From assembly GCA_026770705.1 (NCBI GenBank), contig JANJGN010000013.1, forward strand, positions 57,536,001 to 57,600,000: DNA of 64,000 nucleotides, written 5' to 3'. The notes below the pieces were generated by a model. That model made no database searches. It had not been told where the DNA came from and saw only the letters and a program-made list of their open reading frames with translations. This DNA comes from Isurus oxyrinchus (Eukaryota). Every line of letters begins with the position of its first letter. The first letter of the stretch is position 1. Shown here one piece after another: positions 40,977 to 63,450 of this stretch. Position numbers and translations under genes: made by a program.

Positions 40977-41063
40977 CTACAGCTGGGAGTAAACCATTTG
41001 CACTTCATTTCCACTTTCTGTCTTGGGCTCTGCTTTGCAGATATTCACAGCTGCATATTACGC
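40977..41063 (-). CDS. Predicted exon 4 (terminal, cytoplasmic) of the IgV receptor; in-frame TAA at 41058-41060
   Basis: Acceptor cactaat…ttgtcctacatttacag|; phase 0 reads A*YAAVNICKAEPKTESGNEVQMVYSQL* with two tyrosine motifs. Confidence 0.62.
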
Positions 41064-41459
41064 CTGTAAATGTAGGACAACGTATTAGTGGTCCATATTT
41101 TGATATATGTAGAGTTAGCAAGCAGCTAATTAATTTTTGATTATTAGTCTGCAGACGTTAAAACAAATTCACAGTGGCCGTGACTTCAAACTGACGGCAA
41201 TGTAGAGATAAGTACATTCACACGATGGTAATTCACTTTTGAAACATGTCTATCAGTAGGTCACTTAATTAGTATTTCATTATCTTTAATTGCCGCATCC
41301 TGGTTGTGGCATTAATTTGTAATATCCATTGAGGGCTGTGTAACTACATGTCTGGTAGGATTCTCTATGTATTTTGTACATCAGACTAATAGCTAATTTG
41401 TACAAAGTGCAGGACATGATACAATTGGGTTAAACATAATCTTATTACAGGTACAGTAC

Positions 41460-41509
41460 CTCTGGGACGGTTCCGGTAAACAGAACGCTGTGTTCAACTG
41501 ATTGCTTCT
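41460..41509 (-). CDS. Predicted exon 3 (cytoplasmic, 50 nt) of the IgV receptor
   Basis: Acceptor ttttcggttgttttgtcattgcag|, donor GAG|gtactg; phase 1 to 0; reads QKQSVEHSVLFTGTVPE. Confidence 0.68.
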
Positions 41510-43126
41510 CTGCAATGACAAAACAACCGAAAATGATTTCTTGCGAAGCTTTCGAGTTAAGCCGAATCTGTAACCGAATTAAGTGTTTATTCTCGGGAAA
41601 AGAGAATTCAATGGATTGTATTGGCCTGCCACGTGAGAAAGTGCCAGCCTCAGTATTATTGCTCTTAGAATCTTTTATAAACTGGAAACGCAGAAGTATT
41701 TTGAACTAGAATAGGAGATAAGGCATGTAACAACACTACTTTGGGACCTGAATCACGGATCAATTTTACTCCATCATAAATGCTGCTCCGTTGCACAATA
41801 GTTAAAGATTGCAGCTCATGGAAGTACAGTTATACTGGATGACAGATTTGTCTTATAGCTGTATGAGAATCAATGAGATTTACGAGACATTAAGAAGCAA
41901 TATTTTCAACAGGCCGTTTATAGGAAAGCAATTGAAAGCATTTTTCAGGCTTTTATGCTAGCGGTATAAATCTATTTGGATTACAGCCTATAATATACGC
42001 GCATCTGGACAGGCAGCTTATCTGCAAGATACGTACTTACATTATAGATAACAGGCCCCACACAGAACAATTATAGCAGCGTTGGTTTCACACTGAAACA
42101 CCTAACTCATTCTTGCTGTACTTTACGCTCCAATATCATGTCTATCTTGAGCATAAGGGGAATTGAAAATTCTTACAGTTGCGAACCATTGGGACAGACT
42201 AGGACATGGTTTGGAATTCAATGTAAATAAAGGTAATGCATATTGGAACAAAAACAAGAAACGTGTAGACCACGAATCGGTCTAATTTTGTGAAGACTGT
42301 GAAGGTCGTGGAGCCAGGTAAGCGCAGCCCGTGGGAGAGAAGTGTCTCCCTTTATGGGGCAAAACGTTTATATATTGGACTGAGAGTTGAGACCACTTGG
42401 TTGATAATATCCAGTCCCACGGTGCTAGGTTAGGGACAGCTCAAGATATCTTCATTTAGGAAAGGAAGTAAGGTAAAAATCTAGCTCTTAAAATGCCAAG
42501 AGACAGGCATAATGTAAATGTAAGCGACTGTGAGTCGAGAATTAGAAGCCACGGTACAAGAGATACCACAGAGCAGCCGAACAGACTCCCCAAAAATCGG
42601 TAACTTAATAAAGGACTAATCTGGGTTTAGGATAGGGGTGACGGTTACAGGAAAACTCGAGTAAGGATATAGGTAACTGTTATCCTGTGATACCCGGCAG
42701 CTGATGTGCTTTTGTAAACAAGAAAATGTCATGATTGCTGAAATCATGGATATGACAATGGATTGATCACTGAATCCGGGGTATTTTGCTTTTAGGTGGG
42801 AGTCCAGTGAAAATTTGGAAAATAAAATTATCTCAGGATTTGTAGAAAAGGTGAACTTCATATGCCAGGTTGATTTTTTTCTTACTGATAAATGTGGTAA
42901 AAACTGTACAACAATTACAAACTTTGATAAATTCCAGTTACCATATTTAAGCACATATATAACAACATATTCTGGCTGAAATAATTTTACGTGGAAGAAC
43001 AGTAACCGTTTGCCCTCAAGCATTTGTTAAAAGACGTCATTATATTAATTGGAGAATATTTGCTATTTTTGATTAAAGTTGTATATCATAAACCTAACAT
43101 TGCTATAATGAAAGTCTAATACTCAC

Positions 43127-43243
43127 GTCTTGCTTTCCTGTTGCGTGCAGCTACAAGGAAAATAACGCATAAAATCACCAGCGGACACAGCAGGAAAGAC
43201 CACTGGACTTTGATTTTCCTGGAATCATGATCTTTAAAAGATT
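43127..43243 (-). CDS. Predicted exon 2 (stalk + transmembrane) of the IgV receptor
   Basis: Acceptor atttctttaaag| (alternative in-frame acceptor gives start 43231), donor C|gtgagt; phase 1 to 1; ESFKDHDSRKIKVQWSFLLCPLVILCVIFLVAARNRKAR is a TM helix plus basic stop-transfer. Confidence 0.82.
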
Positions 43244-43687
43244 CTTTAAAGAAATTCGTATATATTTATCACAATTTTAAGTAAAAATCTCTGCCAAACA
43301 ATACGTCCTTCAACTAGTGTGATTGTAAGTGGAAACATGTAAAAGAGAAATTGTTGTTATTGCACCTCTCACTGTGCGGTAACCCCAGGATGTACATGTT
43401 TTTCTGGGTTCCTTTCACATTGTAACCTTTAATTACACGTCTCAAGCACATAATATAACACATGATTTGATATTCTGCGAGGCGTTAGCCTGTATTTCCC
43501 CCCGCCATCCCCCCCCACCCCACCCCTCGGCTGCTTTAGGGACAGAATTATCGCATTTAAAGTTACTGGTCGACGAATTCCCAGAAAGGTGAAATTTGGT
43601 CATCCAATAACGTATTGGACTGACCGCATTTCAAATTCTGAGTTTTCTGCCGACTGTTCACCTTCATTCCAGGGGGTGCAAATGTGG

Positions 43688-44105
43688 GGAGGCGTTGGCG
43701 TAGTGGTATGGTCACTGGATGAGTAATTCTCTGGGGGATCCGCGTTCGAATCCCCAAATTCAATAGGAGTCTAGAATCAGATGTCAGAATTACCTGGACA
43801 AACTCAGCAGGTCTGGCAGCATCGGCGTAGAAGAAAGGAGTTGACGTTTCGAGTCCTCATGACCCTTCACCGGAGCTCTTTTCTTCTTCGCCGATGCTGC
43901 CAGACGTGCTGAGTTTGTCCAGGTAATTCTGTTTTTGTTTTGGATTTCCAGCATCCGTAGTTTCTTGTTTTTATCTTATTAGAATCAAATGTCGTTGTCG
44001 TAAGTACCTTCCTCTCTCCCTTTAGGGAAGGAAAACTGCTTCCTGTACTTGTCTACATATGACCCACAAATTGTGGTGGTTGGCAATCAAATGCTGGCCT
44101 AAAAA
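43688..44105 (+). mobile_element. tRNA-derived SINE in intron 1, split by a Penelope hairpin
   Basis: Perfect A box TGGCGTAGTGG (43696) and B box GTTCGAATCC (43744); tail …aaatgctggcct. Confidence 0.8.
43786..43979. mobile_element. Penelope pLTR-only hairpin insertion
   Basis: Inverted arms of the same sequence as 8688-8935; TSD TAGAATCAGATGTC / TAGAATCAAATGTC (43772-43785, 43980-43993). Confidence 0.88.
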
Positions 44106-44227
44106 GTACTGTGCAGGATTTCTGTCAGATAACATATAGTCAGAAATGACCTCAGTGGAACACAACATTCTAAGTTGTAGCTGAGAAAAGAACAACAAAA
44201 TTATGAATTAATAATATTTTTGCGATT

Positions 44228-44455
44228 GGAGGTGGTGGCACAATGGTATTGTCACTGACTAGAGCTTTATGGGACCTAGGTTCAAATCCTGCTATAGCAG
44301 ATGGTGAGATTTAAATTCAATAAAAATCTGGACAGCCATTGCCATAAAAACCCAGTTGGTTTGCTGGTCTGGCCTACATGTAGTTGACTCTTAAAAAATG
44401 GACTGGGCAATAAATGCTGGCCTAGCCAGCAATGCTCGCATCCAATGAATAAAAT
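44228..44455 (+). mobile_element. tRNA-derived SINE (deleted copy)
   Basis: ggtggcacaatggtattgtcact…ggttcaaatcc…aaatgctggcctagccagc. Confidence 0.8.
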
Positions 44456-44599
44456 CAAGGCTACTTGACCATGATGGTGGAAGCAGAATAGTAACACAGT
44501 TATTCTCCAAGCAGAGAATGAAGTTCAAAATTCTTACATGGGCAAAGGAGGTGATGCAAATCCTGGTTGCCACGTAACATTGAGAGGAACAGAATAATT

Positions 44600-45945
44600 G
44601 TTGCAAAAACGCTATCTAATATTTACAATTTTATGTATATTTAGCCTGTAATGGCTATCAGATCATATTTATTTACTTCAATGTGTGCTATCAATTTGTT
44701 TACTCTTAGTTTTTTGTTATCTTTGTGACATCTAGTCTTGATTCTTTGTGCATTCCTAGGTTTTTTCTCTCTGTTCCTTCCTGCCATTCTCCAACCCTTA
44801 TTTGCTATATTACTATTTTCCTCTCTTACCTTGCCTCTAATCTTTGATATACCACAACTTTCCACATTTGATCCCTTGCCTCCACTATTTAGTTTAAAAC
44901 CTTCTCTACTTCCCTAGTTATTTGGTTCACAAGAACACTGGTCCCAGCCTGGTTCAGGTGTAGACTGTCCCAATGGTAGAGTCCCACTTTCCCCAGTATT
45001 GGTGCCAGTGTTCCACAAACCAGAACCCACTTCTCACACACCAGTCTTTGAGTCAAGTATTCATCTCTCTAACTGCATATACCCTATGCCAATTTGCACG
45101 TGGCTCAGGTAATAACCAAGGGATTATAACCTTTGAGGTTGTGCTTTTCAATTTACTGCCTAGCTCCTCATACTGTCTATGAAGAATCTCATTCTAATTC
45201 TACCTATGTCATTGTTATGTACATGGACCAGGACAACTGGATCCCTCTCACCAAACCCTAGGAGTTCTTGTGCATGAGTCACAGAAGTTAGAAGGAAGGT
45301 ACAGCAATTAATTAAGAAGGCTAATGGAATGCTGTCCTTAACTACAAGAAGAATTGAACATAAAAGTAAGGATGTTATGCTTCAGTTATACAGGGGATTG
45401 GTGAGACTGCACCTCGCATACTCCTTATTTAAGGAGGGATGTAAATGCATTGGAGGTGGTTCAGAGAATGTTTACTACATTGATACCCGGCATGTGTGTG
45501 TTGTCTTATGAAGAAAGGTTGGACAGACTGGGCTTGTTTCCATTGGAGTTTAGAAGAGTGAGGGGTGATTTGATTGAAGTATACAAGATCCTGAATGGTC
45601 TTGGCAAGGTAACGTGGAAAGAATAATTCCTCCTGTGGGTGAATTCAGATTTAGGGGGCACTGTTTTAAAATTCGTCCCTTTAGGACATAGATGAAGAGA
45701 ATTTTTTTCTCTCAGAGGGTTGTGCGACTTTGGAACTCTACCTCAGAAGGTGGTGGAGGTGGGGTCATTGAATATTTTAAAGACAGAGGTAGATGGATTC
45801 TTGTTAGGCAAGGGAATCAAAGGTTTACGGAGTTAGATGGGAATTTGGAAATCAAAACACAAGGAAATCAGCCATGATCTTATTGAATGGTGGAGCAGGC
45901 TCGAAGGGCTGAATGACCTACTCCTATTTCGTATGTTCATATTCA
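44600..45945. mobile_element. Two CR1 fragments in intron 1: 44600-45270 (-, ORF1 end/EN start) and 45270-45945 (+, 3' end)
   Basis: NKLIAHIEVNKYDLIAIT; KSKDVMLQLYRGLVRLHL; CR1 tail …gggctgaatgacctactcct. Confidence 0.8.
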
Positions 45946-46487
45946 TTACAATGCTGTTCAATACCAGAAAATAAATTTAGACTAGAATGTCTCTGACGCG
46001 CTAACCACACCTATACCAATTACTGAATTAATCTGAAGTAAAATTATATTCAGGTTTTCCACACTGATTCACTGAAACCAGTTGCATGTTGAACGCACCC
46101 ATATTTTGTACCCATTTTTTCCACTTCCTCCGCTGAATGTTTTGTTTGTCACTGGATAAAGGTTCAATAGATGCCGAGTTCCCACCTTTACTTCTCCCAA
46201 ATGACAATTCTCCGTAATCCTTGCTTCAGTCTGCTCCTGGTCCCATACACCCCAACACTTTCCAACAAGAATCACTAGCACTGAGTCATGACCAGGAGCA
46301 GCAGTCCTGATCATTCGCCCTTTTTCAGACGGTGCGCTTCGCCAATTGTAACTCTGAATCTCAGTCCAGTGTTCAACTGTTTTAACCTTCACAGCACCAA
46401 TAAACACTGGGGCATGAATACAGTGATGTGACGGGTTGAATTACCATGAGTACTGCCACACTTTGAAACATAAATAATAGGACCTAC

Positions 46488-46905
46488 CTGTAACTGTCAA
46501 TGTGCTTCCATTGCCCCTCATACCTTCAGTGGACGGTGGATTCAGACTCATCAATTCACAATAATATGTGCCACTGTCCCCAGGCTGGAGGTGGTTTATT
46601 GATATCTGCGATACATTTCGATCTTGGTCTTTTCTATTTACCACCCGGATTGACTGATTACTCTTGCATCTGTCCATGTAAATAATATAGGTCGGATTAT
46701 TTTGGTTTCTTGGTTGGTGAAGCCAGTTGATTACGAAGTCCTGAATTTCATCAGCAGAATAGACACAGGTCAGGTTCGCTGTCCCTCCTTCGGTCACAAG
46801 CAGAGAATCTGGGGTCTGGTATACCCGAATCCCTTCGGCAGCACTCAGTGTCCAGTCAGGGCAGAAAATAGACATCTGCATCAATATTAATATCATGATG
46901 TTCAT
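46488..46905 (-). CDS. Predicted exon 1 (signal peptide + IgV/VJ-type domain) of a PD-1/CD28H-like type I receptor; an upstream in-frame ATG lies at 46980
   Basis: MNIMILILMQMSIFCPDWTLSAAEG leader. V-set hallmarks: TANLTC (B-strand Cys), FVINW (C-strand Trp), DSGTYYC, J-like GNGSTLTVT. Phase-1 donor ACAG|gtaggt at 46488/46487. Four N-glycosylation sequons. Confidence 0.9.
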
Positions 46906-47170
46906 GTTAACCAGGCGACACCGGAGAACATCAGCCTTCAGGTTTGCAAGAGTCAGCAGAGGCACTCGGTTATTGTTCATCTTTCACAGCTCTCGGTGCG
47001 GATGTGGGACGTGGGGAGTTTAGAGTTGGCCACCCGCCTCTTGCTAGTTACGCGTGGGTTTCAAAGCCCAACTCTGCTGCTCAGTATTCTCAGATAAACT
47101 CGCGCTCACCACAGAGAGCAACGTGGAACCCAGCGATAACCAGCACCGGCGACGTCAGTACAAAACAGTA
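46906..47170 (-). promoter_or_regulatory. CpG-rich putative promoter/5' UTR of the IgV gene
   Basis: Dense CpGs, near-CRE TGACGTCG (minus strand, ~47150-47157), GATA motif (cagataa ~47092). Confidence 0.4.
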
Positions 47171-47244
47171 ATTTAAGGCTTTGATGCCTCTCCTCTAGTC
47201 TTCATATTTAGCCTGGCTATTGTCGCATGATTAATGTGTTTTTT

Positions 47245-47590
47245 TTTATTCATTCACGGGATGTGGGCTTCGCTGGCTGGGCCAGCATTTATTGTCCATC
47301 CACTTAATTGCCCTTGAGAAGGTGGTGATGAGCTGCCTTCTTGAACCGCTGCAGTCCATGTGGTGTAGGTACACCCACAGTGCTGTTAGGGAGGGAGTTC
47401 CAGGATTTTGACCCAGTGACAGTGAAGGAACAGCGATATATTTCCAAATGAGGATGGTGAGTGTCTTGGAGGGGAACTTGCAGGTGGTGGTATTCCCATC
47501 TATCTGCTGCCCTTGTCCTTCTAGATGGTAGTGGTCGTGGGTTTGGAAGATGCTGCCTAAGGAAATGTGTCTAAGGAAATGAGCCTTGAG
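47245..47590 (-). mobile_element. CR1-clade LINE 3' end
   Basis: Close match to 10070-10390. Confidence 0.88.
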
Positions 47591-48429
47591 ACAAATCGAA
47601 TCAACGGGCAAAATAAATTCAGTTCAATTACAGTTTGTAACTGCCCATATTGCTAGTAAATATAAAATCAATTGCTGCATCGAATCAAATCTGCAAAAGT
47701 TTCCCTGTGCGAGTAAATGTTTAAATACACTTTGCTGATAAATACTGGTGGGAGATAAGCCCGGAGAGGCGGTTTGAAGCTTTCAGTGCAATGACAGTGC
47801 TTTCCTATTCTCGTTTCCTGGCAGTCACACAGACAGTAATGCAGGGTTAATGCCCACAGCACGGGCACAGTGTAGCTGGTACAAGATGTGAACTTAGAGA
47901 ATGTGTTTTTCTTCACGATAATTGTGAAAAATTGACCTGTGACTGATTTGGATTCAGTGCGTCCCTCTGTTCCCCAGCTGCCTGCAGGCACTATTCCTCT
48001 ATCGAGGTTTGTGGTGTGAACAATAATTTTTAATTTATTAATTTTTTTATGGTTCTGGCTCTGAATCATTCAAGGCATTGTAGTCTCGTGGTTAGGGCAC
48101 TTTTTCCTGGCTGGGGAACCACAACCAGGGTGGGGGTGGGGTGGGGAGGGGGGGGGGGGGGGGGGCGGGGGCGGGGTGTCAACGCCTTTGTGGTCAAAGG
48201 AAGGAAACTTCAAATTTTGCAACTTGGAATGTTAGAACATTCATGGATAACCTCAAGGTTGACCACCTGGAAAGAAAAACTACAACAATATAGTAAGCTA
48301 TCAAAACTCCAAACTGACATTGCTGCCCTCAGTGAGGCCCACCTTCCTGGGAAGGGGCAGCTGAAGGAAAAAGCCGAGGGACACACCTTCTACTGGAAAG
48401 AAAAGACTGACAGCAGCCCTCACGTCCAC

Positions 48430-48775
48430 ACAAATAAAAACAGAAAGTGCTGGAAATACTCAACAGGTCTGGCAGCATCTATGGAGAGAGAAAGTTACCA
48501 TTTCGAGTCCAATGTGACTCTTCTTCAGAACTGAAGGAGGGTAGAAAAGTGATGGGCTATCTGCTGTCATGAGAGGAGGGGAGAGGAGGAACAAAAGGGA
48601 AGGTCTGGGAAAGGCTAGAGGGTCAGAGAGCTAAAATGACAAAGATGTCATGGAACGTAAGGCAATGGGAGTGGTTATGGTTGTAGTAAAGTGACACAGT
48701 ATTTGTCCAGAGTGAGTATAAATGCCACAATAATAAACATCTGAAAGCAAGAAACATGAAAACAAGATTCAAGCT
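48430..48775 (-). mobile_element. Penelope pLTR fragment containing a hammerhead motif (48493-48532)
   Basis: AGTT-CTGAAGA-AGAGTC-ACATTG-GACTC-GAAA-TGGT-AACT on the minus strand; canonical CUGANGA core. Confidence 0.7.
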
Positions 48776-49119
48776 GGTACATGGCAAAAAAATCAGAATC
48801 AAATGTGGGACAGGGGCTATTTACCTTATCCAAGATCAACTTCCTTCTGCTCTCAGTATTAACTGCCACCTAGGTGGAAAGCTCTTTAGTCTCAGTTGCC
48901 TCTGTGCCAAAACTAAACTGACCACCATAGACATACATGATCTACTGTTTGAGGAAGACTGCAGTGCTCACTCTGCACCAGGTTTACAAGCTGCACTTGA
49001 TGTCTTCAATCCTGCATACAAGAAGCTCAGCCTCTCCTTGAATGTTGCCAAAACAGAACTCATATGTCCACTGACACCTGGTCAGTCAAATATTCCACCT
49101 CCATTTGGCTTCATTGGTA

Positions 49120-52100
49120 GGGAAACTTTTGGAAACTATAGTTCGGGACAAAATCAATTGTAACATAGACAAGTGCAGGATAATTAAGGAAAGCCAGCAT
49201 CGATTCATTAAGGGAAAATTATGTTTACCTAACTTGCTGGAGATTTTTGAAGAGGTAACAGAGAAGGTTGATAAAGGCAATGCTATTGATGTGGTGTATA
49301 TGGATTTTCAAAAGGCATTTGATGCAGTGCCACACAACAGATTTGTGAGGAAAATTCTAGCTCATGGAATGAAAGGGAAAGGAGGTACTTGGATAAGAAA
49401 TTGGCTGAGTGACAGGAAACAGAGAATAATGATAAATGATTGTTTTTCAGATTGGAGGAAGGTTTGTAGCGGAATTCCCCAGGGGTCAGTGTTGGGATCC
49501 TTGCTGCTCCTGATATATATTAATGACCTAGACTGTGGTGTGCAAGGTATGATTTCAAATTTTGCAGTTGATACGAAGATTGGAAATGTTGTCAACCATG
49601 ATGGGTATAGTCTTGAACTTCTAAAGGACATAGACATTTGGTGGATTGGGCAGACAAATGGCAGATGAAGTTCAATGCAGTGTAGTGTGAGGTGACTCAT
49701 TTTGGCAGGTAGAATATGGTGAGACAGTATAAAATAAATGGAGAAACTCTGAAGAAGGTGCAGGAACAGAGGGATCTCAGTTTATATGTGTTTATATGTG
49801 GGGGGGGGGGGGGAGAGGTGATAGTGTAGTGGTATTGTCATTGGACTAGCCATAGCAGATGGTGAAATTTGAAATCTGGAATTAAAGGTTCAATGATGAC
49901 CAGGAAGCCATTGTTGTAAAAGCCCATCTGGTTCACAAATCCCTTTAGGGAAGGGAATCTGTCACCCTTACCTGGTCTGGCCAACATGTGACTCTAGACC
50001 CACAGCAATGTGGTTACTCTGAAATGGCCTAGCAAGGCACTCAGTTGTAACATGCCATGACAAAGACACAAAAAAGGAATGAAACTGGACGGACCATCAA
50101 GCATTGACCTAGGCACTGGAAATGACAACGATAATCGCAGGCCTTACCAGCCCTGCAAAGTCTTCCTCATTAACATCTGAGGGAGAGTGTCTCACAGACT
50201 AGCCAAGCAACAGCCTAACATAGCCATCCTCATGGAATCATGCCTTACAGATAATGTCCCAGACTCTACCTATCATCATCCCTGGGTATATCCTGTCTCA
50301 CTGGCAGGACAGAACCAGCAGAGGTGGCAGCACAGTGGTATACTCAACATCAACTCTGGAACCCATGAAGTCTCATTGCATCAGGCCAAACATGGGCAAG
50401 TAAATCTACTGCTGATTACCAAGTAGCTCACTCCCTCAGCTGATGAATCAATGCTCCTCCATGTTGAATGTCACTTGGAGGATGCACTGAGGGTAGCATG
50501 GGCACAGAATGTTTTCTGGATGGGGGACTTCAATGTCCATCACCAAGAGTGGCATGGTAGCACCACTACTGACCGAGGTGGCTGAGTCCTAAATTACATA
50601 ACTGCTTCCCTGGGTCTGCAGCAGGTGATGAGGGAACCAACAAGAGGGAAAAACATACTTGACCTCATCCTCATCAACCTGCCTGTCGTAGATGCATCTG
50701 TCCATGACAGTATCAGTAGGAGTGATCACTGCACAGTCATTGTGGAGATGAAGTCCCACCTTTACACTGAGGGTACCCTCCATCATGTTGTATGGCACTA
50801 CCATCGTGCTAACCGGGATAGATTTCGAACAGATTTAGCAACACAAGACTGGGTATCCATGAGGCACTGCGGGCCATCAGCAGCAGTATTGTACTCAAAC
50901 ACAATCTGTAACCTCATGGCCCGGCATATTCCCCAATCTACCATTACCATCAAGCCAAGGGATCAACCCTGATTCAATGAAGAGTGCAGGAGGACATGCC
51001 AGGATTAGCATCAGGCATACCTAAAAATGAACTGTCAACCTGGTGAAGCTATAAAACAGGACTTCTTGAGTGCGAAGCAACAAGTGATAGAGCTAAGCAA
51101 TCTCACAAGCAACGAGTCAGAAATAAGCTCTGCAGTCCTGCCACATCCAGCAGTTAATGGTGGTGGACAATTAAACAACTCACTGGAGGAGGTGGCTCCA
51201 CAAATATCCCCATCCTCAAGGCTGGAGGAGCCCAGCACATCACTGCAAAAGATAAGGCTGAAGCATTTCCAACAATCTTGATCCATCTTGGCTTCCTCCG
51301 GTGGTCCCTAGAATCACAGATACCAGTCTTCAGCTAATTCGATTCTCTCCATGTGACATTAGTGCTGAAGGCACTGGATACTGAAAAGGCTTTGGGCCCT
51401 GACAATATTCTGGCAATAGTACTGAAGACTTGTGCTCCAGAACTTGCCATGCCCCTAGCCAAGCTGTTCCAGTACAGCTACATCACTGGCATCTACCCAG
51501 CTATGTGGAAAATTGCCCAGATATGTCCTGCTCACAAAAAGCAGGACAAATCCAACCCGGCTAATTACTGCCCCATCAGTCTACTCTCCATCATCAGTAA
51601 AGTAATGGAAGGGGTCATCAACAGTGCTATCAAGTGGCACTTGTTTAGCAATAAACTGCTCACTGATGCTCAGTTTGGATTCCGCCAGGGCCACTCACAT
51701 CCTGATCTCATTACAGCCTTGGTTCAAACATGGACAAAAGAGCTGAACTCCCGAGGTGAGGTGAGAGTGACTGCCTGTGACATCAAGGCAGCATTTGACA
51801 GAGTATGGCATGAAGGAGCCCTAGCAAAACTGGAGTCAGTCGGAATCAGGAGGAAAACTCTTCGCTGGATGGAGTCATACCCAGCACAAAGGAAGATGGT
51901 TGTGGTCAATGGAGGTCAGTCATCTCTGCTCCAGAACATGACTGCAGGCTTTCGTCAGGGTAGACTCCTAGGCCCAACCATCTTCAGCTGCTTTATCAAT
52001 GACCTTCCTTCCATCATAATGTCAGAAGTAGGGATGTTTGCTGATGATTGCACAATGTTCAGCACCATTCACGATTCCTCAGATACTGAAGTAGCCCATG

Positions 52101-53745
52101 CCCAAATGCAGTTAGGCCTGAGCGATATCCAGGCTTGGGCTGACAAGTGGCAAGTAATATTCATGCCACACAAGTGTCAGGCAATGACCATCTCCAACAA
52201 GAGAGAATCCAGTCATCGTACCTTGATGTTCGATGGCATTACCATCACTGAGTCCCCCACTATCAACACCCTGGGGGCTACCATTGACCAGAAACTGAAC
52301 TGGTCTAGCCATATAAAATACTGTGGCTACAAGAGCAGGTCAGAGGCTAAGGACCATGCGATGAGTAACTCGCCTCCTGACTCCCCAAAACCTGTCCACC
52401 ATCTACAAGGCACAAGTCAGGAATGTGATGGAATACCCCCCATTTGCCTGGATGAATTCAGCTCCTACAACACTGAAGAGGCTGGACACCATCCAGGACA
52501 AAACAGTCCACTTGATTGGCACCACATCCACAAACCTTCACTCCCTCCCCCACTGACGCACAGTAGCAGCAGTGTGTACATCTACAAGATGCACTGCAGG
52601 AATTCACCAAGGCTCCTTAGACAGCACCTTCCAAACCCACAACCATGACCACATAGAAGGACAAGGGCTGCACATAGAAGGGGACATCACCACTTGGAAG
52701 TTCCCCTCCAAGCCACTCACCATCCTGACTTGGAAATATATCGCCATTTCTTCACTGTCGCTGGGTCAATATCCTGGAACTCCCTTCCTAATAGCACTGT
52801 GGGTGTACCTACATCACATGGACTGCAGCGGTTCAAGAAGGCACATCACTTTTATTCCTTTTGCCAAGTATTTTGAATCTGTGCCCTCTAGTTCTTGGTG
52901 CTGTCTTGAGTGGGGACAGTTTCTCACTATTTGCCCTGTCCATACCCCTCACAGTCTTGAATACCTCTATCGAGTGTCCTCCTATCAAGTTGCCCAACGG
53001 CAACTAGGGATGGGCAATAAATGCTGGCCCAGCCAGTGAAACCCACATCCCATGAATGAATCAAAAAAAATGTCATTGATAGTGGCAGTGTCTGTTGAGA
53101 GAGCAGTTAATAAAGCATATAATATCTTAGGCTTTATTAATAAGGACATTGCAAGAGTAAGGAGGTCATGTTGAACTTGTACAAGCCACTCGTTAGGCCT
53201 CATCTGGAGTACTGCATCCAGTTCTGGGTGCCACACTTGAGGAAGAATGTGAAGGCATTGGAGAGAGCGCAGAGGACATTCACAAGAATGATTCCCATTT
53301 AAAGAACTATATTTATGAGGTTAGTTTGGAGAAGTTGGAACTGTTTGCCTTAGAGAAGAGAAGGCTGAGAGGAGACTTGATAGAGGTATTCAAGATTATG
53401 AGGGGTATGGACAGGGTAATTAGTGAGAAACGGTTCCTGCTCAAGAGAGCACCAAGAACTAGAGGGCACAGATTCAAAATAATTGGCAAAAGGAATAAAA
53501 GTGATGAGGATTTTTTTTTTCACCTGGGGAATGGCTGGAGTCTGGAATGAACATCCTGAGGGGGTGGTGGAGACAGGTTTGATTGAGGTATTCAAAAAGG
53601 AATTGGATTATTATCTGAAAAGAGAGCATATGCAAGGTTATGGGGATAAGGCAGGGGAGTGGGACTAGGTAGCATGCTTTCTCAGAAAGCCAGACTCGAT
53701 GGGCCAAATGGCCTCTTTCTGCACTGTAAAGATTCTGTGATTCCA
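49120..53745 (+). mobile_element. CR1 LINE (RT 49120-49800; 3' end 53075-53745) split by the 49815-53070 element
   Basis: ORF 49105-49668 YMDFQKAFDAVPH, SGIPQGSVLG; tail …ctgcactgtaaagattctgtgattc. Confidence 0.88.
49815..53070 (+). mobile_element. Near-full-length CR1-clade LINE: tRNA-SINE-like 5' head, APE endonuclease, RT, 3' tail
   Basis: Head 49815-50050 matches the SINE 5' half; EN motifs from ~50150; ORF 51353-52648 RT (DIKAAFDRVWH, FADD); A-rich tail ends ~53070. Confidence 0.88.
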
Positions 53746-53999
53746 TATATGTTGCAGGAGAAACTCTGGAATATGTTGAGCACTCCCCATGTCTTGGCTG
53801 CTCCCTCTCTCAAAAGGCCACTGCTGATGAGGAAATCCAACACTGGATCAGCTGCACCAGCTCAGGCTTCTACAGACTACAGCAGTGAGTGTTTGACAAC
53901 AAAGACCTCCGCAGGAAGTCTTAGTGTACAGAGCAGTTAAGGAACAAAAAGGAAGCAAATCTTATACTCTGGATCCCACTGCCTTGCAGTACATCCTGC

Positions 54000-56880
54000 T
54001 CTGTGTGCCTAAAGATCTGTGAATCAAGAATTGGACACTTCAGTCACATGCAGACCCATGGCAGAAGCTCACGACCTTGAGTAGATGTCATCCTTGAAGC
54101 GAGGGACAAACACTGCTGCCAATCTTTTATGTTCCTTGATATCCAACAGGCTCTAGATTTGGGAGTCTAGAGTTGTTTTTTTTCTGTGAGCATATTTGTT
54201 TTGAACTGCCATTGTCTCCTCATTGGCTGCCTCCCATTGCTTTGGCTCTAATTTACTTTCATAAGTTATTTTCAATCCTCTTTTATCAAAGCACATCTCA
54301 GCTCAGTAAAGTTCACCTTTCCCCAATTGAAAACTTTTATCCCTCCTCTATCTTTGTCCTTTTCCATAACTATTCTAAATCTAAACAAATTATGATCACT
54401 ACCACCAAGATGCTCTCCCACTGATAACCCTTCCATGTGCCTAGCTTCATTTTCTAAAACTAAGTCGAAAACGATCTCTTCACTTGTTGGGCTTACTACA
54501 TGTTGGCTAATAAGTCCTCCTGAAGCATTTTAAAAATTTGAAGCCTTATATATCTTTTACACTGTTTCTATCCCAGTTAAATCTTATTATTGTTGAAGTC
54601 CCCTTATTGTTTTTGCACTTCTCAAAAATATGCACTTAGATTTGCTCTTCTTTCCCTTTCTGACTAATGGGGGCTTAAAGTGTACTTCCTTTCTTTCTTC
54701 TTCGGTTCAACTTGTGTATCCTTATTGGATGATGCTTCCAGCATATCATCACAGCTGTGATTGTTTCTTTAGCCAATATTGCTATCCCAGTCTTTCTTTA
54801 ATCCCCTTCCCAATCTGGTCTGAAAACCCTGAAACAGTAATATTGAGTTGCCGCTCCTGCCCTTCTTTAAGCAATGTTTCAGTAACAGATATGATATCAC
54901 ACTTTCAAGTATCTAATGCTTCCCTCAGCTCATCTGCCTAATTCACTGGATTTATTGCATTCAAGTTCTGCATTGCATGCCAAACTCCTTTACTGTGTAT
55001 TTTCTAAGCTTTGTTTCCTCTGCCTTCCACCTTCACTTACTCCTTTTCTGCCTATCATTTCCAGGTTTGTTTCTCTCCCTTCTGAATCTACACTGGTAAC
55101 TGTTCATATCGGTCTCACGCTTGTGCTGATTTTAACATTTTGCTCTGTTCTTTTTATGGCGCCCTTTTTTATTGGACCAATGGCCTGTGACTTACAAAGA
55201 GCTTTGGCGTTCCCTAATTGTGATAAACCAAACTGCACGAATGGAAAAAGCATTCTCCACCATCACAAACCACATTTTTTTTGGATTAGCTGATGTTTAT
55301 CAAGGGTGAAGGAAAAATGGTCACTCAGCTTCCTGATAATTCAAAGTCCTTTACTACGCTAAATTGCTTGTTCGATTTAACAATGCAAACAATGTGAGGA
55401 GTAGGAATTTACTGCTCTGAATATATCACAGTAAAAGCCCAGTGAAAGAGGAGGTAGTTCAGATACTAGATGGGCTAAAAATTGATAAAGAGGAGGCATT
55501 GGAAAGGCTGGCTGCACGTAACTGGATAAATCACTAGGCCCAGATGAGATGCAACCCAGGCCGTTGACAGATGTAGGGATGTAAGTGAAAGCACCGTGAA
55601 TGTTGCCAAGGTCTCTGGTTGAGATCTTGTTTTTTGTGATTTGCATCGCAAAACCTGGTTGAAATGCAAAAAAGCAAAACATTGGTAATGGACAGCAAGC
55701 ATTCAGTTGGAAGCTCATTCTGCCTGAGGCTAATGGGATTACTTGCCCATTCAGCCCCTCTGATTGGCTCTTCCACATTTGTGTGCTTCCTGCCATTCTA
55801 AATTGGGTGGTAACTATGGAGACGGTTTACTAATTGGCTGCCTGCAGTAAGATTAGGCCAGTCACTCCTCAGCTCCATTTCAAATGGGAGACCCCTTATT
55901 TTGAAAATATGCCCTCAAGTTCCAGACTTCCCCACAAAGTGGAAACGTCCTCTTGGCATGCATCCTGTCGAATCCCCTCAGAATTTTATGTTTCAGTAAG
56001 ATCACCTCTCATTCATCTAAACTCCAATGACTATAGGCCTAACCTGCTCAACCTTTCCTCATAAGAAAACCCCTCATCCCAGGAATTAGCCGAGTGAACA
56101 TTCTCTGAACTGCTTCTAATACAATAATATTCCTCCTTAAGTAAGGCAACTAAAACTATACACAATACTCCAGATGTAATCTTGCTAAGGTCTTGTACAG
56201 CTGTAGCAACACTTAAGTACCTTAATATTACATTCACCTTGAAATAAAGGCCAACATTCCAACATTCCATTTGCCTTCCGGATCACTTGCTGTAACTGTA
56301 GGCTAGCTTTGGTGACTCATATACCAGGCACCAAGATCCCTCTGTGCCACAGATTTCTCAGTCTCTCTCTATTTAAATACTATTCTATTTTTCTATTTTT
56401 CCTGTCAAAGTGGACAAGTTCACATTTTCCCACATTATATTCCACCTGTAAATTTTTCCCCACTCACTCAACCCAACTGTTCCCCTTTGCAGAGTCTTTG
56501 TGTGATCTTCACAACTTACTACCCACCTTTGTGTCATCAGCAAGTTTAGCTACCATACGTTCAGTCCCTTCATCCAAGTCATGAATATAGATTATAAATA
56601 GTTGAGGTCCCAGCACTGATCCCTGTGCAACTCCAATAGTTATGATTTGACAAGGCAAAAATGACCCATTTATCCCGCAACTCTCTGCTTCCTGTTAGCT
56701 AACCCATCCTCTATCCATGCAAATATGTTACCCTCTACCCCATGAGCTCTTATCTTGTGTATTAACCTTTTATGTGGCACCCTTTCAAATGCCTTTTGAA
56801 AATCCAAATACCCCACATCTACTGGTTCTCATTATCTATCCTGCTTGTTACCTCCTCAAAGAACTCTAATAAATTACAGC
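54000..56880. mobile_element. Several CR1 fragments (54000-55050 -, 55400-55620 +, 55870-56880 -)
   Basis: EN and RT motif fragments; ttgtgtcatcagcaa (ADDT on minus strand), FSYEERLSRLGL. Confidence 0.7.
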
Positions 56881-57862
56881 CAGAGTGCTTGTGAAAAGTA
56901 AAGGATCCATTTACAGGGAGAGCACTTGTGGACTTCATTTAAAACAGAGAGCGGTGAGCATGTGGACTTTATTTAAAGCAAAGAGTGGTGAGCGTGTGAA
57001 CTTTTTTCAAAGCAGAAAGTGGAGTGAGAATGTGGACTTTATTTAAAGCAGAGAACGAGGTGAAAGTGTGGACTTTATTTAAAGCAGAGAGCGAGGCAAT
57101 AATGTGGACTCTATTTAAAGCAGCGAGCGAGTAAGCGTGTGAACTTTACTTAAAGCAGAGAGCGAGTGAGTGTGTGAACTATAATTAAAGCAAAGAGTGG
57201 GTGAGCATGTGGACTCGATTTGAAACCAATCAGAGAGACTTCATTTAAAAAGACAGAGAGCAGCTGATTGGTGAGTTGGATTGGTGAGTATTTCTAGTCT
57301 TTAGATTAAAATTAACGTTTATAGTTAGTATTTAGATCTCTAGTTTTTATTTTCTCTTTCTTAAAAATAGCCTGTTAAATATAAGATCGATACTGGTGTA
57401 AATAATTAAATCCAATAAAGTGTAAAGGGCAGGGATTCTAGAGGAATTAATTAATAAATTAATTTAAATAGGATAGCGATGGCAGGATGGGTGATATGTT
57501 GCTGCTGCGGCATATGGGTTCTGCTGGACACCAAGGTGATCTGTCGAAAACACATCTGTAGTAAATGTTTGTAGCTTGAGGAACTTCGGATCTGAATTAA
57601 GGAACTGGAGTCTGAGCTGCAGACGTTGCAAGGAGGGGGAAAGTTACCTGGACACGTTGCTCTAGGAGGTGGTCACACCCCACAGGTTAGATAATTCGAA
57701 TTTGGCCCGTGATCAGGGACAGGAGGGTGTGACTGCAGGTGAGGCAGGTATGGGGACCCAGGGGTAGTGTTCAAGGAGCTTCAGCTCCTGAAATTGTCCA
57801 ACAGTTATGAGGTTCTTGCAAGCAGTGTGGACGAGAGCAGCATAAAGTGTATTCGGGGCAGT
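56880..57862 (+). mobile_element. CR1 5' end with ORF1 zinc-finger/leucine-zipper remnant
   Basis: From 57479: MAGWVICCCCGIWVLLDTKVICRKHICSKCL*LEELRI*IKELESELQTL. Confidence 0.75.
56925..57230 (+). repeat. Tandem repeat of ~9 copies of a 34-36 bp unit in a CR1 5' UTR
   Basis: Unit ~TGTGGACTTTATTTAAAGCAGAGAGCGAGTGAGCG starting near 56927, 56961, 56995, 57031, 57067, 57103, 57138, 57173 and 57208. Confidence 0.9.
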
Positions 57863-60800
57863 TAGAGTCATAGAGTCATAGAGGTATACAGCACAGAAAA
57901 GACCCTTTGGCCCATCGAGTCTGCGCTGGTCAAACAAGTACCTAACTATTCTAATCTAATTTTCCAGCACTAGGCCCATAGCCTTGTATGTCATGGCATC
58001 ACAAGTGCACATCCAAATACTTCTTAAATGTTATGAGGGTTTCTGCCTCTACCACCCTTTTAGGCAGTGAGCTCCAGATTCCCACCACCCTCTAGATGAA
58101 AAAATTATTTCTCACATCCCCTCTAAACCTCCTGCTCCTTACCTTAAATCTATGCCTGCTGGTTATTGATCCCCCCACCAAAGGAAAAAGTTCCTTCCTC
58201 TCTGCCCTATCTATGCCCCTCATAATTTTATACACTTCAATCATGTCCCCCCTCAATCTCCTCTGCTCCAGGGAAAATAACCCCAGTCTATTCAATCTCT
58301 CCTCATAACTAAAACTCTCCAGCCCAGGCAACATCCTGGTAAATCTCCTCTGCACTTTTTCTAGTGCAATCACAGCCTTCCTACAATGTGGATTCCAGAA
58401 CTGCATGCAATACTCTAGCTGTAGCCTAACCAGCATTTGATACAGTTCCAGCATAACCTCCCTGCTTTTATATTCTATGCCTTGGCTAATAAATGCAAGT
58501 ATTCCATATGCCTTCTTGACCACGTTATCTACCTGTCCCACTACCTTAAGGGACTGGTGGACATGCATACTAAGGTCCCTCTGATCTTCAGTACATCCTA
58601 GGGTCCTACCATTCATTGTGTATTCCCTGCCTTGCTTGTCCTGCCCAAGTGCATCTCCTCACACTTATCCAGATTAAGTTCCACTTGCCACCAATCAGTC
58701 CATCTGACTAGCCCGTCTATATCCTCCTGTAACCTAAGGCTATCCTCCTCACTATTTATCACCCCACCAAATTTTGTGTCATCTACAAATTTACTGATCA
58801 ACCCTCCTACATTCAAGTCTAAATCGTTTATATATACCACAAACAGCAAGGGACCCAACAGCGATCCCTGTGGAACCCCACTGGACACAGGCATCCAGTC
58901 ACAAAAACACCCCTCGACCATCACCCTCTGCTTCCTGCCACTCAGCCAGTTCTGGATCCAGTTTGCCAAATTGTCTTGGACCCCATGGGCTCTTACCTTT
59001 GTTATCAGTCTCCCATGTGGGACCTTATCAAAAACCTTGCTGAAGTCCAAGTAGACTTTGCCAAATGCATTGCCCTCATTTACATGCCTGGTCACCTCTT
59101 CAAAAAATTCAATCAAATTGGTCAGACATGACCTCCCCTTAACAAAACCATGCTGACTGTCCTTGATTTATCCCCACCTCTGCAAGTGTAGATTAATTCT
59201 GTCCCTCAGAATTGCTTCCAATAGTCCTCCCACCCACCCCCCTTGAGGTTAGACTGACTGGCCTGTAGTTCCCTGGTTTATCCCTTCCTCCCTTCTTGAA
59301 TAACACTGGCTGTCCTCCAGCCCTCTGGCATCTCTCCTGTGGCCAGAGAGGTATTGAAAATTATTGCCTGCGCCCCTGCTATCTCCCCTCCCCCTTGCCT
59401 CATCCAACAGCCTGGTATACATTTCATCCGGGCCTGGAGATTTATCTACTTTTAAGCCTGCCAGTCCACTTAGAACCTCCTGCCATTCTATGCTAATTTC
59501 TTTAATTATATCACATTCCTCCTGCTTGATTTCCATACCCACATCGTCCCTCTCACTTGTGAACACCAACACAAAGTATTCATTTAGAACCCTACCTACA
59601 TCTTCCAGCTCCACACACAAATTACCACTATGGTCCTTAATAGCCTCTACTCTTTCGCTAGTTATCCTCTTACTCTTAATGTACTTGTAAAATAACTTTG
59701 GATTTTCCTTTATTTTACCTGCCAATGTTTTTTCATGGCCCCTTTTTGCTCTCCTAATTTCCTTTTTAAGATTCCCCCCTTCACATTCTATACCCCTCTA
59801 GGACTACTGCTGTTTTAAGCCTTCAGTAACTGCCATAAACCTCCCTTCATCTATTTATCCAACCCTGTATATCCCTCGACATCCAGGGTTCCCTAGATTT
59901 GTTGGTACCACCCTTTATCTTTACTGGGATATATTGGCCCTGTACTCTCCCTACTTACTTCTTGGTTGAGTTCCACTGCTCTGACACAGATTTACCTAAA
60001 AGTAGCTGCTCCCAGTCCACTCTGGCCAAATCATATCTGATCTTATTAAAATAGGCCTTCCCCAGTTTAGAACTTTGATTTCTGGCCCATCCTTGTCCTG
60101 TTCCATAACAACCTTGAATCTAATGGAGTTATGATCACTATCTGCAAAATGCTTCCCCACTGATACCTCTACCACTTGCCTGGCTTCATTCCCTAAAATT
60201 AAGTCCAGGACCTTCTCTTGTAGGATCTTCTACATGGTCTCCTGGATGCATTTTAAGAATTCCACTCCCTCTAAACCTATCACACTAAGACTAATCCAGT
60301 TAATGTTGGGAAAGTTGAAATCCCCCACTATTACTACCTTATTATTTTTACATTTCTCTGAAATTTGCCTACATATCTGCTCTCCTATTTCTCTCTGACT
60401 GTTTGGGGGCCTACGGTATACTCCCAGCAATGTGATTGCTCCTTTTTTGTTTTTATGTTCTACCCATATGGCTTCATTTGAGGAGCCTTCTAAGATGTCA
60501 TCCCTCCTTACTGCTGTAATTGATTCCCTGATCAAAATTGCAATACCCCCTCCTCTTTTACCTCCTTTCCTGTCTCGCCTGAGGACTGTATATCTTGGAA
60601 TATTGAGCTGCCAATCCCACCCCTCTCTCAACCATGTGTCTGTGACAGCAATGACACTATACTTCCGTGTGTTAATTTGTGCCCTCAATTCATCTGCTTT
60701 ATTCGTCAGACTCCTTGCATTAAAATAAATACCATCCAACCTTTCCAAACTCCCTTGTGCATTAACTGGCCTATAATTTCTATGCCTTCCAGATTCACTT

Positions 60801-61080
60801 GCTCTCTCTTCTAATTTTGGCTGTGCATCTCCCCCTGCTGAATCTTCTCTCAGGTTCCCACCCCCCTGCCAGGCTAGTTTAAACCCACCCCAACAGCACT
60901 AGCAAACCTCCCCACAAGGATGTTGGTCCCATTCTGGTTCATGTGCAACCTGTCCACCTTGTACAGGTCCCACTGCCCCCATAAATGGTCTCAATGTCCC
61001 AGAAATCTAAAGCCCTCCCTCCTGCACCATCTCTCCAGCTACGCATTCACCTGGACTAACCTCTTATTTCTATACTCACT
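57863..61080 (-). mobile_element. CR1 LINE, near-complete ORF2 (APE + RT) with ORF1 C-terminus and tail
   Basis: ORFs 60230-60748 (YFNARSL…VGDFN), 58613-59116 (YLDFSKVFDKVPH, SGVPQGS, FVDDTK) and 58092-58616; tail (ctatgact)n. Confidence 0.93.
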
Positions 61081-61084
61081 AGTG

Positions 61085-63450
61085 CAGTAGTTTCCTAGAA
61101 CAATATGTTGTGTATCCAACCAAGGATCAGCCTTTTCTGGATCTGGTAATGTATAATGGGGCATGTTTAATAAATGATTTCAGAGCAAAGGATCCCCTAG
61201 AAAACAATGACCATAACATGGTGGAATTAAGCATTCAGTTTTAGAGTGAGAAACTTAGGTCAGAAACATCTGTGCTTAAATAAGGGTGATTACAAAGAAA
61301 TGAGGGCAGTGTTGCTGGAGTGGACTGGGAAAGGAATTTAGCAGAAAAGACGGTTGATGAACAATGGCAGATGTTTAAGAAAATAGTTCATGACTTACAA
61401 CAAAGATATATCCCAATGAGGAAGAAGGATTTTAGGAGGGGGTAAACCATGATTAACCAAGGAACTTAAGGACAGTACCAAAGTGAAAGAAAAAACATAC
61501 ATTGTGGCAAAGATTAGTGGTAAGCCAGGGGATTGGGAAAGTTTTAAAAACCAATGGAAGATGACCAAAAAGTAATAAAGAGGGAGAAGATAAACTTTGA
61601 GGATAAACTAACAAGTTATATAAAAATGGACAGTGAGAGCTTCTTTAAATATGTAAAAGGGAGACGAGAGGCAAATGTCAATATAGGCCCCTTAGAGAAT
61701 GAGGCTGAGGAAATAATAATGGAGAACCGGGAAACAGCAGATGAGTTGAATAAATGCTTTGTATCAATCTTCATGGTAGAAGACACTAATAGCATACCAA
61801 AAATACTATTTTTTTGTGGGGAGGAGGCAGTGGTGTAGTGCTATTGTCACTAGACTGGTAATCCAGAGACCCAGGTTAATTCTCTGAGGGACTTGCATTC
61901 AAATCCCACCATAGCAGATGGTGGAATTTGAGTCCAACAGAACTCTGGAATTCAAAGTCTAATGATGACTGTGAAACCATTGCAGATTGTCATAAAAACC
62001 CATCTGTTTCACTAATGTCCATTAGGGAAGGACCTGCTGCCCTTACTTGGCCTGGTCTACATGTGACTCCAGACCCACAGCAATGCAGCTGACTCTTAAA
62101 ATTCCCTTTGAGCAAGGGTAATTGGGGATGGGCAATGCTGGCTAAGCCAGTGATGCCCACATCCAATAAATAATCAAGCAGAGTCAGCTATGCTTCATGA
62201 AGGGGATCTTGTGCCTGACAAATTTATTAGAATTTTTGAGGAGGTAACAAGCAGGATAGATAAAGAGGAACAAGTAGATGTAATATATTTGGATTTTCAA
62301 AAGGCGTTCGATAAGGTACCACACATAAGGCTACTTAATAAGATAAGAGCCTGTGGTGTTGGGGGTAGTTTATTAGCATGGATAGAGGACTAGCTAACTA
62401 ATAGATGATAGAGAGATGGGAAACAGGGGGCATTTTCAGGATGGCAACCTGTAACTAGTGGAGTGCCACAGGGATCAGTGCTGGGGCCAAAATTATTTAC
62501 AATACACATTAATGATTTGGATGAGGGAAATGAATGAACTATCGCCAGGTTTGTAGACGACACAAAAATAGGTGGGAAGGCAAGTGGTGAGGATGACACA
62601 AAGAACATACAGGGGGGTATGGACACGTTAAGTGAGTGGGCAAAAATGTGGCTGATGGAATATAATGTGGGAAAGTGTGAAGTTATGCACTTTGGCAGGA
62701 AGAAAAGAGGAATATTATTTAAACAGAGGAAGACTGATGAAAGCTGCAGCATAGAGGGATTTGGGAGTCCTCGTACATGGATCACAGGAAGCTAGCATAC
62801 AAGTTCAGCAGGTAATAGGTAAGACAAATGGAACATTGGCCTTTATTTCAAAGGGAATGGAATATAAAAATAGGGGGAAGTCTTGCTAAAACTATACAAG
62901 GCACGAGTTAGACCACACCCAGAATACAGGAAAGATATACTGGCATTGGAGGCAGTCCAGAGAAGGTTTGCTAGGTTGATTCCAGGTATAGAGGGATTTT
63001 CTTATGAGGAGAGGTTGAGTCGGTTGGGTCTGTACTCATTGGAGTTTAGAAGAATGAGAGGTGATCTTATTGAAACATATAAGATTCTTAGGGGGATTGA
63101 CAGGGTAGATGCTGAGATGTTGTTTCCCCTTGTGGAAGAGTCTAGGACCAGAGGGCATAATCTCAGATTAAGGGTGTGCCCATTTAAAACAGAGCTGAGG
63201 AATTTCTTCTCTCAGAGGGCAGTCAACCTGTGGAATTCTTTAATGCAGAGGCCTGTAAGTGCTGGGTGGTTAAGAATATTACAGGCTGAGTTAGACAGAT
63301 TTTTAATCAGTAAAGGAATCAAGGGATATGGGGAAAAGGCAGGAAAGTGGAGTTGAGGATTATCAGATCAGCCATGATCTCATTGAATAGTGGAGCAGAC
63401 TCAATGGGCTGAATGGCCTACTTCTGCTCCTACGTCTTATGGTCTTAAAT
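61085..63450 (+). mobile_element. CR1 LINE fragment with a nested SINE
   Basis: YLDFQKAFDKVPH; LGLYSLEFRRMRGDLIETYKIL; CR1 tail. Confidence 0.9.
61824..62170 (+). mobile_element. tRNA-derived SINE
   Basis: ggcagtggtgtagtg…ttcaaatcccacc…gatgcccacatcc. Confidence 0.85.

Follow-up and report, generated by a model that had tools for sequence, protein, structure and literature searches.

What kind of receptor is encoded on the reverse strand between positions 40,977 and 46,905 of a 64,000-nucleotide stretch of the Isurus oxyrinchus genome (GenBank assembly GCA_026770705.1, contig JANJGN010000013.1, positions 57,536,001 to 57,600,000)? We call the whole stretch the window and its contig C13, and label other contigs in the same way. 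A preliminary description, made from the letters of the window, saw here a four-exon, single-IgV gene of the CD28/PD-1 family with PD-1-like and CD28H-like features. We found the gene to be real. Rather than a PD-1/CD28H mosaic with a complete tail, it is the tailless member of a pair whose other member is a conserved, still unnamed inhibitory-type receptor found in cartilaginous fish. The preliminary description had missed both the tailless state of the window copy (copy A) and its tandem paralog outside the window (copy B), a twin whose tail carries an immunoreceptor tyrosine-based switch motif (ITSM) and motifs resembling the immunoreceptor tyrosine-based inhibitory motif (ITIM). This receptor family is a fair candidate for the missing cd28hl3. 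The explanation we favour, which we hold to have about an even chance of being right as a whole, is that copy A is a non-signalling decoy for a likely inhibitory copy B and that the pair is the cartilaginous-fish orthologue of cd28hl3.

Copy A consists of four exons (46905-46488, 418 nt; 43243-43127, 117 nt; 41509-41460, 50 nt; 41063-40977, 87 nt), as previously proposed, and all three of its introns run from GT to AG, in phases 1, 1 and 0. Its features, together with those that emerge from comparison with the paralog, are as follows.

46488..46980, reverse strand: exon 1, which holds both the leader and the entire VJ-type IgV domain, starting at ATG 46980 or 46905 and ending at a phase-1 GT donor; 413 of 418 letters from ATG 46905 equal the paralog's.

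43127..43243, reverse strand: exon 2, short stalk, uncharged transmembrane helix (hydropathy 2.71) and basic stop-transfer sequence; 109 of 117 letters equal the paralog's, and contigs of sequencing run X1 cover it.

41460..41509, reverse strand: exon 3, first cytoplasmic exon, with no tyrosine and with the three sites that sort by copy in three species; read from the sequence and from the 51 letters that separate exon 2 from exon 4 in an X1 contig.

41058..41063, reverse strand: coding part of the last exon, one codon (GCG) followed by TAA at 41060-41058 in the phase-0 reading of the spliced frame.

40977..41057, reverse strand: untranslated remnant of the ancestral tail exon, now 3' untranslated region, with two tyrosine motifs and a second stop (TAG, 40979-40977).

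41367..41374, reverse strand: deletion junction in intron 3, where about 1.29 kb of the paralog, including its 135-nt ITSM exon, is missing (the paralog alignment jumps from C13:57523654 to 57522368).

46373..47240, reverse strand: tract homogenised with the paralog, 95.8% identical over 874 nt (exon 1, 98.2%).

42364..42969, reverse strand: second homogenised tract, in intron 2, 98.2% identical over 606 nt.

The product comprises 196 amino acids from ATG 46905, which agrees with the starts of most relatives, or 221 from the in-frame ATG 46980, the RefSeq start. Pfam assigns a V-set domain to exon 1 (PF07686, E 3.3e-17), residues 51-167 of the paralog adopt a V-set fold in its AlphaFold model, and the Pro-Pro FG loop (PPS), the GNG strand and the transmembrane region without charge that had been described before are all present in copy A. 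The last exon had been taken as open coding sequence; its second codon is the in-frame TAA, the tyrosine motifs beyond this stop are untranslated, and the cytoplasmic tail has 24 residues and no tyrosine. The last exon equals that of the paralog at 73 of 87 letters, near the 86.5% of the adjoining intron. Among database proteins, RefSeq models come nearest, one from white shark with 99% identity over the V exon and one from basking shark with 94%. Both models (XP_041058997 and XP_078410778) have their C-terminus at the same residue as copy A; the stop is therefore old, and an assembly error behind the TAA is ruled out. We also looked for a missed phase-shifting exon in intron 3 and found none, the extra exon of the paralog being of phase 0/0 and deleted in copy A.

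Transcript evidence comes from 4 of 13 listed sequencing runs that were aligned to the window (X1, X2, X8 and X11), X1 being RNA by guess only. One X1 contig links exon 2 to exon 4 at a spacing equal to the size of exon 3, depth is zero in three intron bins of X1, and contig pieces span 46488-46962 (X1) and 46664-47003 (X8, a V-exon piece) without gaps. Run X2 behaved as DNA, and run X11 yielded no exon piece. The runs come from an organism whose sequence departs from that of the window at about 1% of positions (13 of 1173 letters in X2), and hence from another individual or a close species.

A whole-genome search returned 11 matches, two of them at 99-100%: copy A itself and copy B, which lies 53.5 kb away on the same strand (C13:57529414-57521930). 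Copy B has five phase-compatible exons and 310 codons, and its tail carries the motifs TIYATV, IVYSNP, ADYSTV and MIYSQL. By the consensus definitions of PMC12151841, TIYATV matches the ITSM, and ADYSTV and MIYSQL fail the strict ITIM at position -2, unlike relatives in which strict V[DE]YSTV or VVYSQV occurs. The fourth intron of copy B begins with GC, so that its ITSM exon (C13:57522542-57522408) has a GC donor. This exon is skipped in the basking-shark model and retained in the white-shark model (LOC121286045, the counterpart of copy B), and copy B may be alternatively spliced at this point.

The V domains of the two copies differ at 2 of 139 residues and the transmembrane region is uncharged in both; a tyrosine-bearing tail is found in copy B only. 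Identity is 98.8% in the V exon, 93% in exon 2, 92% in exon 3 and 83.9% in the last exon, and most other non-coding blocks are 79-89% identical, the exceptions being the intron 2 tract and the intron ends beside exons 1 and 2. From this comparison, copy A is almost certainly a truncated tandem duplicate of copy B. Six proteins of three species vary at 22 sites of the region that they share; three of these sites (one in V, two in exon 2) separate the species, three others, all of them in exon 3, separate the copies, and 16 do neither. As exon 3 sorts by copy, it was not converted, and we infer that the duplication predates the split of the white and basking shark lineages and that the 5' half was converted later.

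The receptor is conserved well beyond these species. A profile of nine relatives matched 13 proteins among 4208 candidates, all of them chondrichthyan and from 11 species (sharks, rays and one chimaera). In all 8 non-lamniform elasmobranch species the modelled tail contains tyrosines, TxYATL/V coming first and a YSxL-type motif last; the long inhibitory-type tail is therefore ancestral and copy A derived. The chimaera model ends early and looks incomplete. Outside lamniforms the gene appears, from the protein collection, to be single-copy, and copy A is retained in two shark families. RefSeq lists direct orthologues of copies A and B as uncharacterized proteins (LOC121286047 and LOC121286045 in Carcharodon carcharias; LOC144687998 and LOC144687101 in Cetorhinus maximus), the A-type genes sharing the stop position. 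The white shark, catshark, whale shark and elephant shark records of the family are unnamed in the openly searchable literature (subscription papers lie outside it). The family motifs do not occur in the nine supplements of PMC11599192, bar one unrelated 7-letter match, and the accessible passages of PMC12227049 (on VJ-type genes) and PMC10751288 (on MHC position) do not describe the gene. A phylogeny, which the preliminary description had proposed, recovered the family as a clade (support 92/94 with 48 rows and 95/86 with 34 rows) and left its sister group without support. The smaller tree was built without 17 of the 51 rows (PD-1, both CD28/CTLA4 exons, C36, C7, P0110, VH, C783 and nine near-duplicates or close relatives). 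A single-V lungfish protein (Protopterus XP_043925707) finds its best match among 51 V domains in the chimaera family member (51.8 bits) and is not grouped with the family in the trees; it is possibly a lobe-finned relative.

To which larger family does this receptor belong? Broad kinship with the CD28 family is, to judge by sequence, highly probable. Copy A has the single extracellular V domain and the one transmembrane region that characterize the family in PMC11599192, and lacks the tyrosine motif, which is present in copy B and in the non-lamniform relatives. Its FG-loop register (YxC-x6-P-x7-GxG) has the spacing of the CD28H, HL and X entries of that survey (PMC11599192 suppl. 4); the register also occurs in shark multi-V and V-C1 proteins and is not family-specific. 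From the earlier assignment to the CD28/PD-1 family, a chondrichthyan single-IgV type I receptor with a CD28-family FG-loop register survives, and the link to PD-1 and CD28H does not.

Within the CD28 family, cd28hl3 is defined by an ITIM/ITSM tail and by a block with prkab1, pla2g1b and tmem233 (PMC11599192). The accessible parts of that 2024 survey (Quiniou et al.) report none found in cartilaginous fish, and for this reason leave cd28hl3 out of the ancestral jawed-vertebrate set; the survey is also the sole source for 'CD28HL3' in the openly searchable literature. We lean towards the pair being the cd28hl3 orthologue, as a candidate, and the chromosomal position is one reason. Neighbouring genes, whose names rest on Pfam family and position, include on one side RPLP0 (66 kb from copy B), paxillin (PXN, 57.39-57.43 Mb), a CTU1-like gene and a Sir2-family exon (57.21 Mb). 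In human, CCDC60, TMEM233, PRKAB1, CIT ... RPLP0, PXN, SIRT4, PLA2G1B and MSI1 stand in this order (PMC11867633), and the stretch spans the cd28hl3 marker genes of PMC11599192. C13 also carries CCDC60-like exons at 49.3 Mb (5 of 5 matches in the genome), PLA2 exons at 53.86 and 60.2-60.3 Mb (5 of 12), a CD225 exon (TMEM233-like) at 54.756 Mb (1 of 45), an AMPK-beta exon (PRKAB) at 54.81 Mb (1 of 3), PATZ1 at 62.97 Mb and DRG1 at 63.03 Mb; an alligator-gar gene model fuses DRG1 with HL3. The prkab1, pla2g1b and tmem233 markers are thus on the same contig as the pair, 2.7-3.7 Mb off and not adjacent to it, and the proposed comparison of flanking genes leads to the cd28hl3 block.

Sequence comparison points in the same direction. 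With gar CD28HL3 as query, in an isoform of the accession given by PMC11599192 suppl. 3, the genome search returned copies A and B as matches 1 and 2 of 12, with weak scores (40.8 and 39.5 bits; next 33.3), and gar HL3 is among the 150 matches listed for the white shark protein (E 1.3e-6). Like CD28HL3 of gar (XP_015221322), sterlet (XP_058850216) and bichir (XP_039627580) (PMC11599192), the pair has a single IgV domain, a YxC-x6-P-x7-GNG loop of equal length, an uncharged transmembrane region and the PRKAB1/PLA2G1B/TMEM233 block, and copy B has at least two inhibitory-type tyrosine motifs, 54 residues from first to last versus 40 in bichir and 61 in sterlet.

Several observations weigh against this assignment. 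Identity to gar CD28HL3 is 29% over 112 aligned residues and does not extend into the tails, which fail to align; the tail of copy A is free of tyrosine, and the survey reports no cd28hl3 from cartilaginous fish. Both copies depart from the strict HL3 loop motif YxCxxxxx[I,A,V,L]P in having N before the proline, and we therefore file the pair as a candidate and not as a member; the carp entry in the table of PMC11599192 also deviates from this motif. PRKAB is 2.7 Mb and DRG1 5.4 Mb distant from the pair, whose immediate neighbours differ from those of HL3. The match to gar HL3 is not reciprocal: on the family profile gar HL3 ranks 7th of 37, outranked by two-V and V-C1 proteins of sharks and by one from lungfish, and an alligator-gar HL3 query ties a C33 exon (33.6 bits) with copy A (33.2). 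The link to HL3 has a support of 40/39 in the 48-row tree, in which PD-1 is drawn in by long branches, and the 34-row tree gives it no supported position. The HL3 rows of these trees are two gar sequences only; bichir, sterlet and teleost HL3 are missing from them because the search of the protein collection gave only 2 gar proteins among 7996 scored. In approximately unbiased (AU) tests, uniting the family with gar HL3 cost 0.08 log units (p 0.50) and uniting it with NCR3-like exons cost 5.49 (p 0.30), neither being rejected. As a separate observation, the C33 exon (C33:10404519-10404890) is a single VJ-type exon, the next best match to gar HL3, and groups (98/95) with shark two-V/multi-V proteins, some of which carry ITIM-like tails; their family is unnamed.

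The same evidence bears on a serious, if lesser, possibility: that the family is a separate chondrichthyan VJ-type lineage and not the HL3 orthologue, be it a cd28hl3 paralog on the same ancestral chromosome, a relative of the multi-V/V-C1 proteins or a divergent subtype of a shark 'NCR3 family'. The family profile scores shark two-V/V-C1 proteins at 60.9-64.5 bits versus 48.4 for gar HL3, no bony-fish member is among the 13 matches of the profile search, and the AU test does not reject union with the NCR3-like exons. CD28-family genes generally have a separate leader exon, unlike copy A, in which leader and V share one. On the other hand, an HL3-block location together with an inhibitory tail would be coincidental in a separate lineage, and a scan of about 1.4 Mb of C13 near the pair and its markers, including 200 kb near PRKAB/TMEM233, 200 kb + 40 kb near PLA2 and 210 kb near PATZ1/DRG1, revealed no other non-immunoglobulin (non-Ig) IgV exon. 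The exons on C21 that we label NCR3-like have no prolines in the FG loop and make up a clade by themselves (100/99). The pair does share with NCR3/NKp30 a non-rearranging VJ domain in one exon and a GxG strand; it differs in its uncharged transmembrane region, its proline-bearing FG loop, the inhibitory tail of copy B and its location away from C21. Activating NKp30 carries a charged transmembrane residue, and copy A has none of this type.

What does the tailless copy do? In the favoured explanation, the ITSM and ITIM-like tyrosines of ligand-bound copy B would attract SHP-type phosphatases, as its motifs suggest, the ligand being, at a guess from the family, of B7 type. A stop within the last exon lets a transcript escape nonsense-mediated decay, and the message of copy A should therefore escape it. 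Copy A would reach the cell surface with no signal of its own, and no pairing with an activating adaptor is expected because its transmembrane region has no charged residue. Gene conversion would keep its binding face matched to that of copy B, and copy A would then compete for the ligand of copy B (titration) or dilute copy B complexes, weakening the inhibitory signal. A decoy function and surface presence of copy A are likely on these grounds; as to whether it works as a decoy rather than simply decaying, the balance is even. Paired and decoy receptors matched by conversion, for example CEACAM1 and its partners (PMC5112662, PMC11646289), are likewise tandem genes with near-identical ligand-binding domains and divergent tails. 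The present pair differs in belonging to another gene family and in having a partner that is tailless, without ITAM-like motif (immunoreceptor tyrosine-based activation motif) or transmembrane charge, and not activating. Two points weigh against a decoy: conversion alone could preserve a useless copy intact, and the case for conversion consists of 6 informative sites and the identity gradient.

It is conceivable, if doubtful, that copy A is a transcribed but functionless duplicate whose tail decayed and whose 5' half was overwritten by conversion from copy B. Its ITSM exon is deleted, its last exon contains two stops, and the sequence after the stop has diverged like intron (83.9% versus 86.5%). 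The 98.2% tract sits in an intron, so that conversion here is not tied to coding function. Against decay, exon 3 has an open frame, is spliced and encodes the same 17 residues in three species (a weak argument at shark rates of change), the splice sites are intact, and the copy has been kept in two shark families. That copy A instead signals through a minor isoform, in which exon 3 is skipped, an AG 13 nt into the last exon is used and the terminal YSQL comes into frame, is improbable: the alignment shows an AG at that spot in copy A and not in copy B, and no stop interrupts the remnant frame between the TAA and the terminal motif, but the sole A-type contig uses exon 3 and the first acceptor (contigs drop rare forms), and the remnant has diverged like intron.

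That copy A is shark PD-1 or CD28H is next to impossible, even though a Callorhinchus relative is auto-named 'programmed cell death protein 1-like' and human PD-1 is among tied structural matches (Foldseek rank 19; VIA Z 13.5, rank 45), since both have separate loci. The PD-1 sequences published for sharks belong to another protein (PMC12151841 suppl. 1), whose tail motif maps once in the genome, at C2:210301261, with a PD-1-type V exon 17 kb upstream. The supposed PD-1 kinship of the V domain finds no support either, this PD-1 orthologue ranking 32 of 37 V domains against the family profile. Shark PD-1 also has a single IgV domain and an inhibitory tyrosine tail (PMC12151841), and copy B would work alike; PD-1 differs in its locus, tail motifs and V sequence, in lacking the loop prolines and GxG, and in having its ITIM before its ITSM, versus ITSM first in copy B. 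The EIP motif of the CDR3-like (complementarity-determining region 3) loop is missing from copy A and present at other loci, which leaves the CD28H kinship without support and rejects CD28H, HL1 and HL2 as identities. CD28X is rejected because the loop reads PPS and not PPP, there is no YEDM, and a CD28X-type exon is found on C11. Loop motifs place the other family slots on C14 (CD28/CTLA4-type), C12 (CD28H-type) and C1 (HL1- and HL2-type), so that, with CD28X and PD-1, all of these matching loci lie on contigs other than C13. The CD28H-type V exon with EIP (C12:40653880-40654242) has a loop close to that of epaulette-shark CD28H (PMC11599192 suppl. 4); CD28H is reported missing from great white shark in the accessible parts of that survey. 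On C1, tandem EIP-type (HL1-like) V exons 36 kb apart (122472723 and 122509008) represent another duplicated CD28-family gene. Fold comparison by Foldseek and VIA does not separate the families, since it gave tied V-set matches (VNAR, TCR, CD79b and PD-1; Z 13.3-15.4). A PDB sequence search gave only antibodies among the best 60 of 3530 matches, and matches in the ESM Atlas, at 0.95-0.96, were to generic V-set clusters that included CD28.

Beyond the pair, long open reading frames (ORFs) in the rest of the window (1-40000 and 47200-64000) are, by translation, remains of LINE-like (long interspersed nuclear element) and Penelope-like retroelements, and ORF translations, which were not scanned against Pfam, revealed no further host gene there. 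Ig light-chain clusters, labelled lambda-type from sequence, occupy C13:57601532-57746000, starting 18 kb from copy A. Some of their V exons are germline-joined; one (57605213-57604923) is split, with a CACTGTG heptamer, a nonamer-like stretch and its own C exon (57601532), and this cluster may be a rearranging, lambda-2-like one. Past the clusters lie leucine-rich repeat (GP1BB-like) and septin exons (C13:57760000-57795000). The pair therefore stands at a junction of genes that belong to 12q24 and 22q11 in human.

Carried furthest, these findings would make CD28HL3 as old as jawed vertebrates. The family would be its missing cartilaginous-fish branch, a second ITSM/ITIM checkpoint beside PD-1 and next to Ig lambda clusters, to which mackerel sharks added a conversion-matched, membrane-anchored, dominant-negative twin; we put this forward tentatively, as a reading that is unlikely to hold in full. 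The accessible parts of the CD28-family survey (PMC11599192) do not describe a dominant-negative twin gene. Both genes are already modelled, unnamed, in RefSeq, and paired or decoy receptors are a known pattern. The findings will mainly concern comparative immunologists. If the assignment is true, a shark cd28hl3 candidate whose inhibitory tail has been retained by sharks and rays would make the ancestral CD28-family set complete and add a second ancient checkpoint receptor, and copies A and B would offer a natural pair, one binding domain with two tails, for direct tests of checkpoint control by a decoy.

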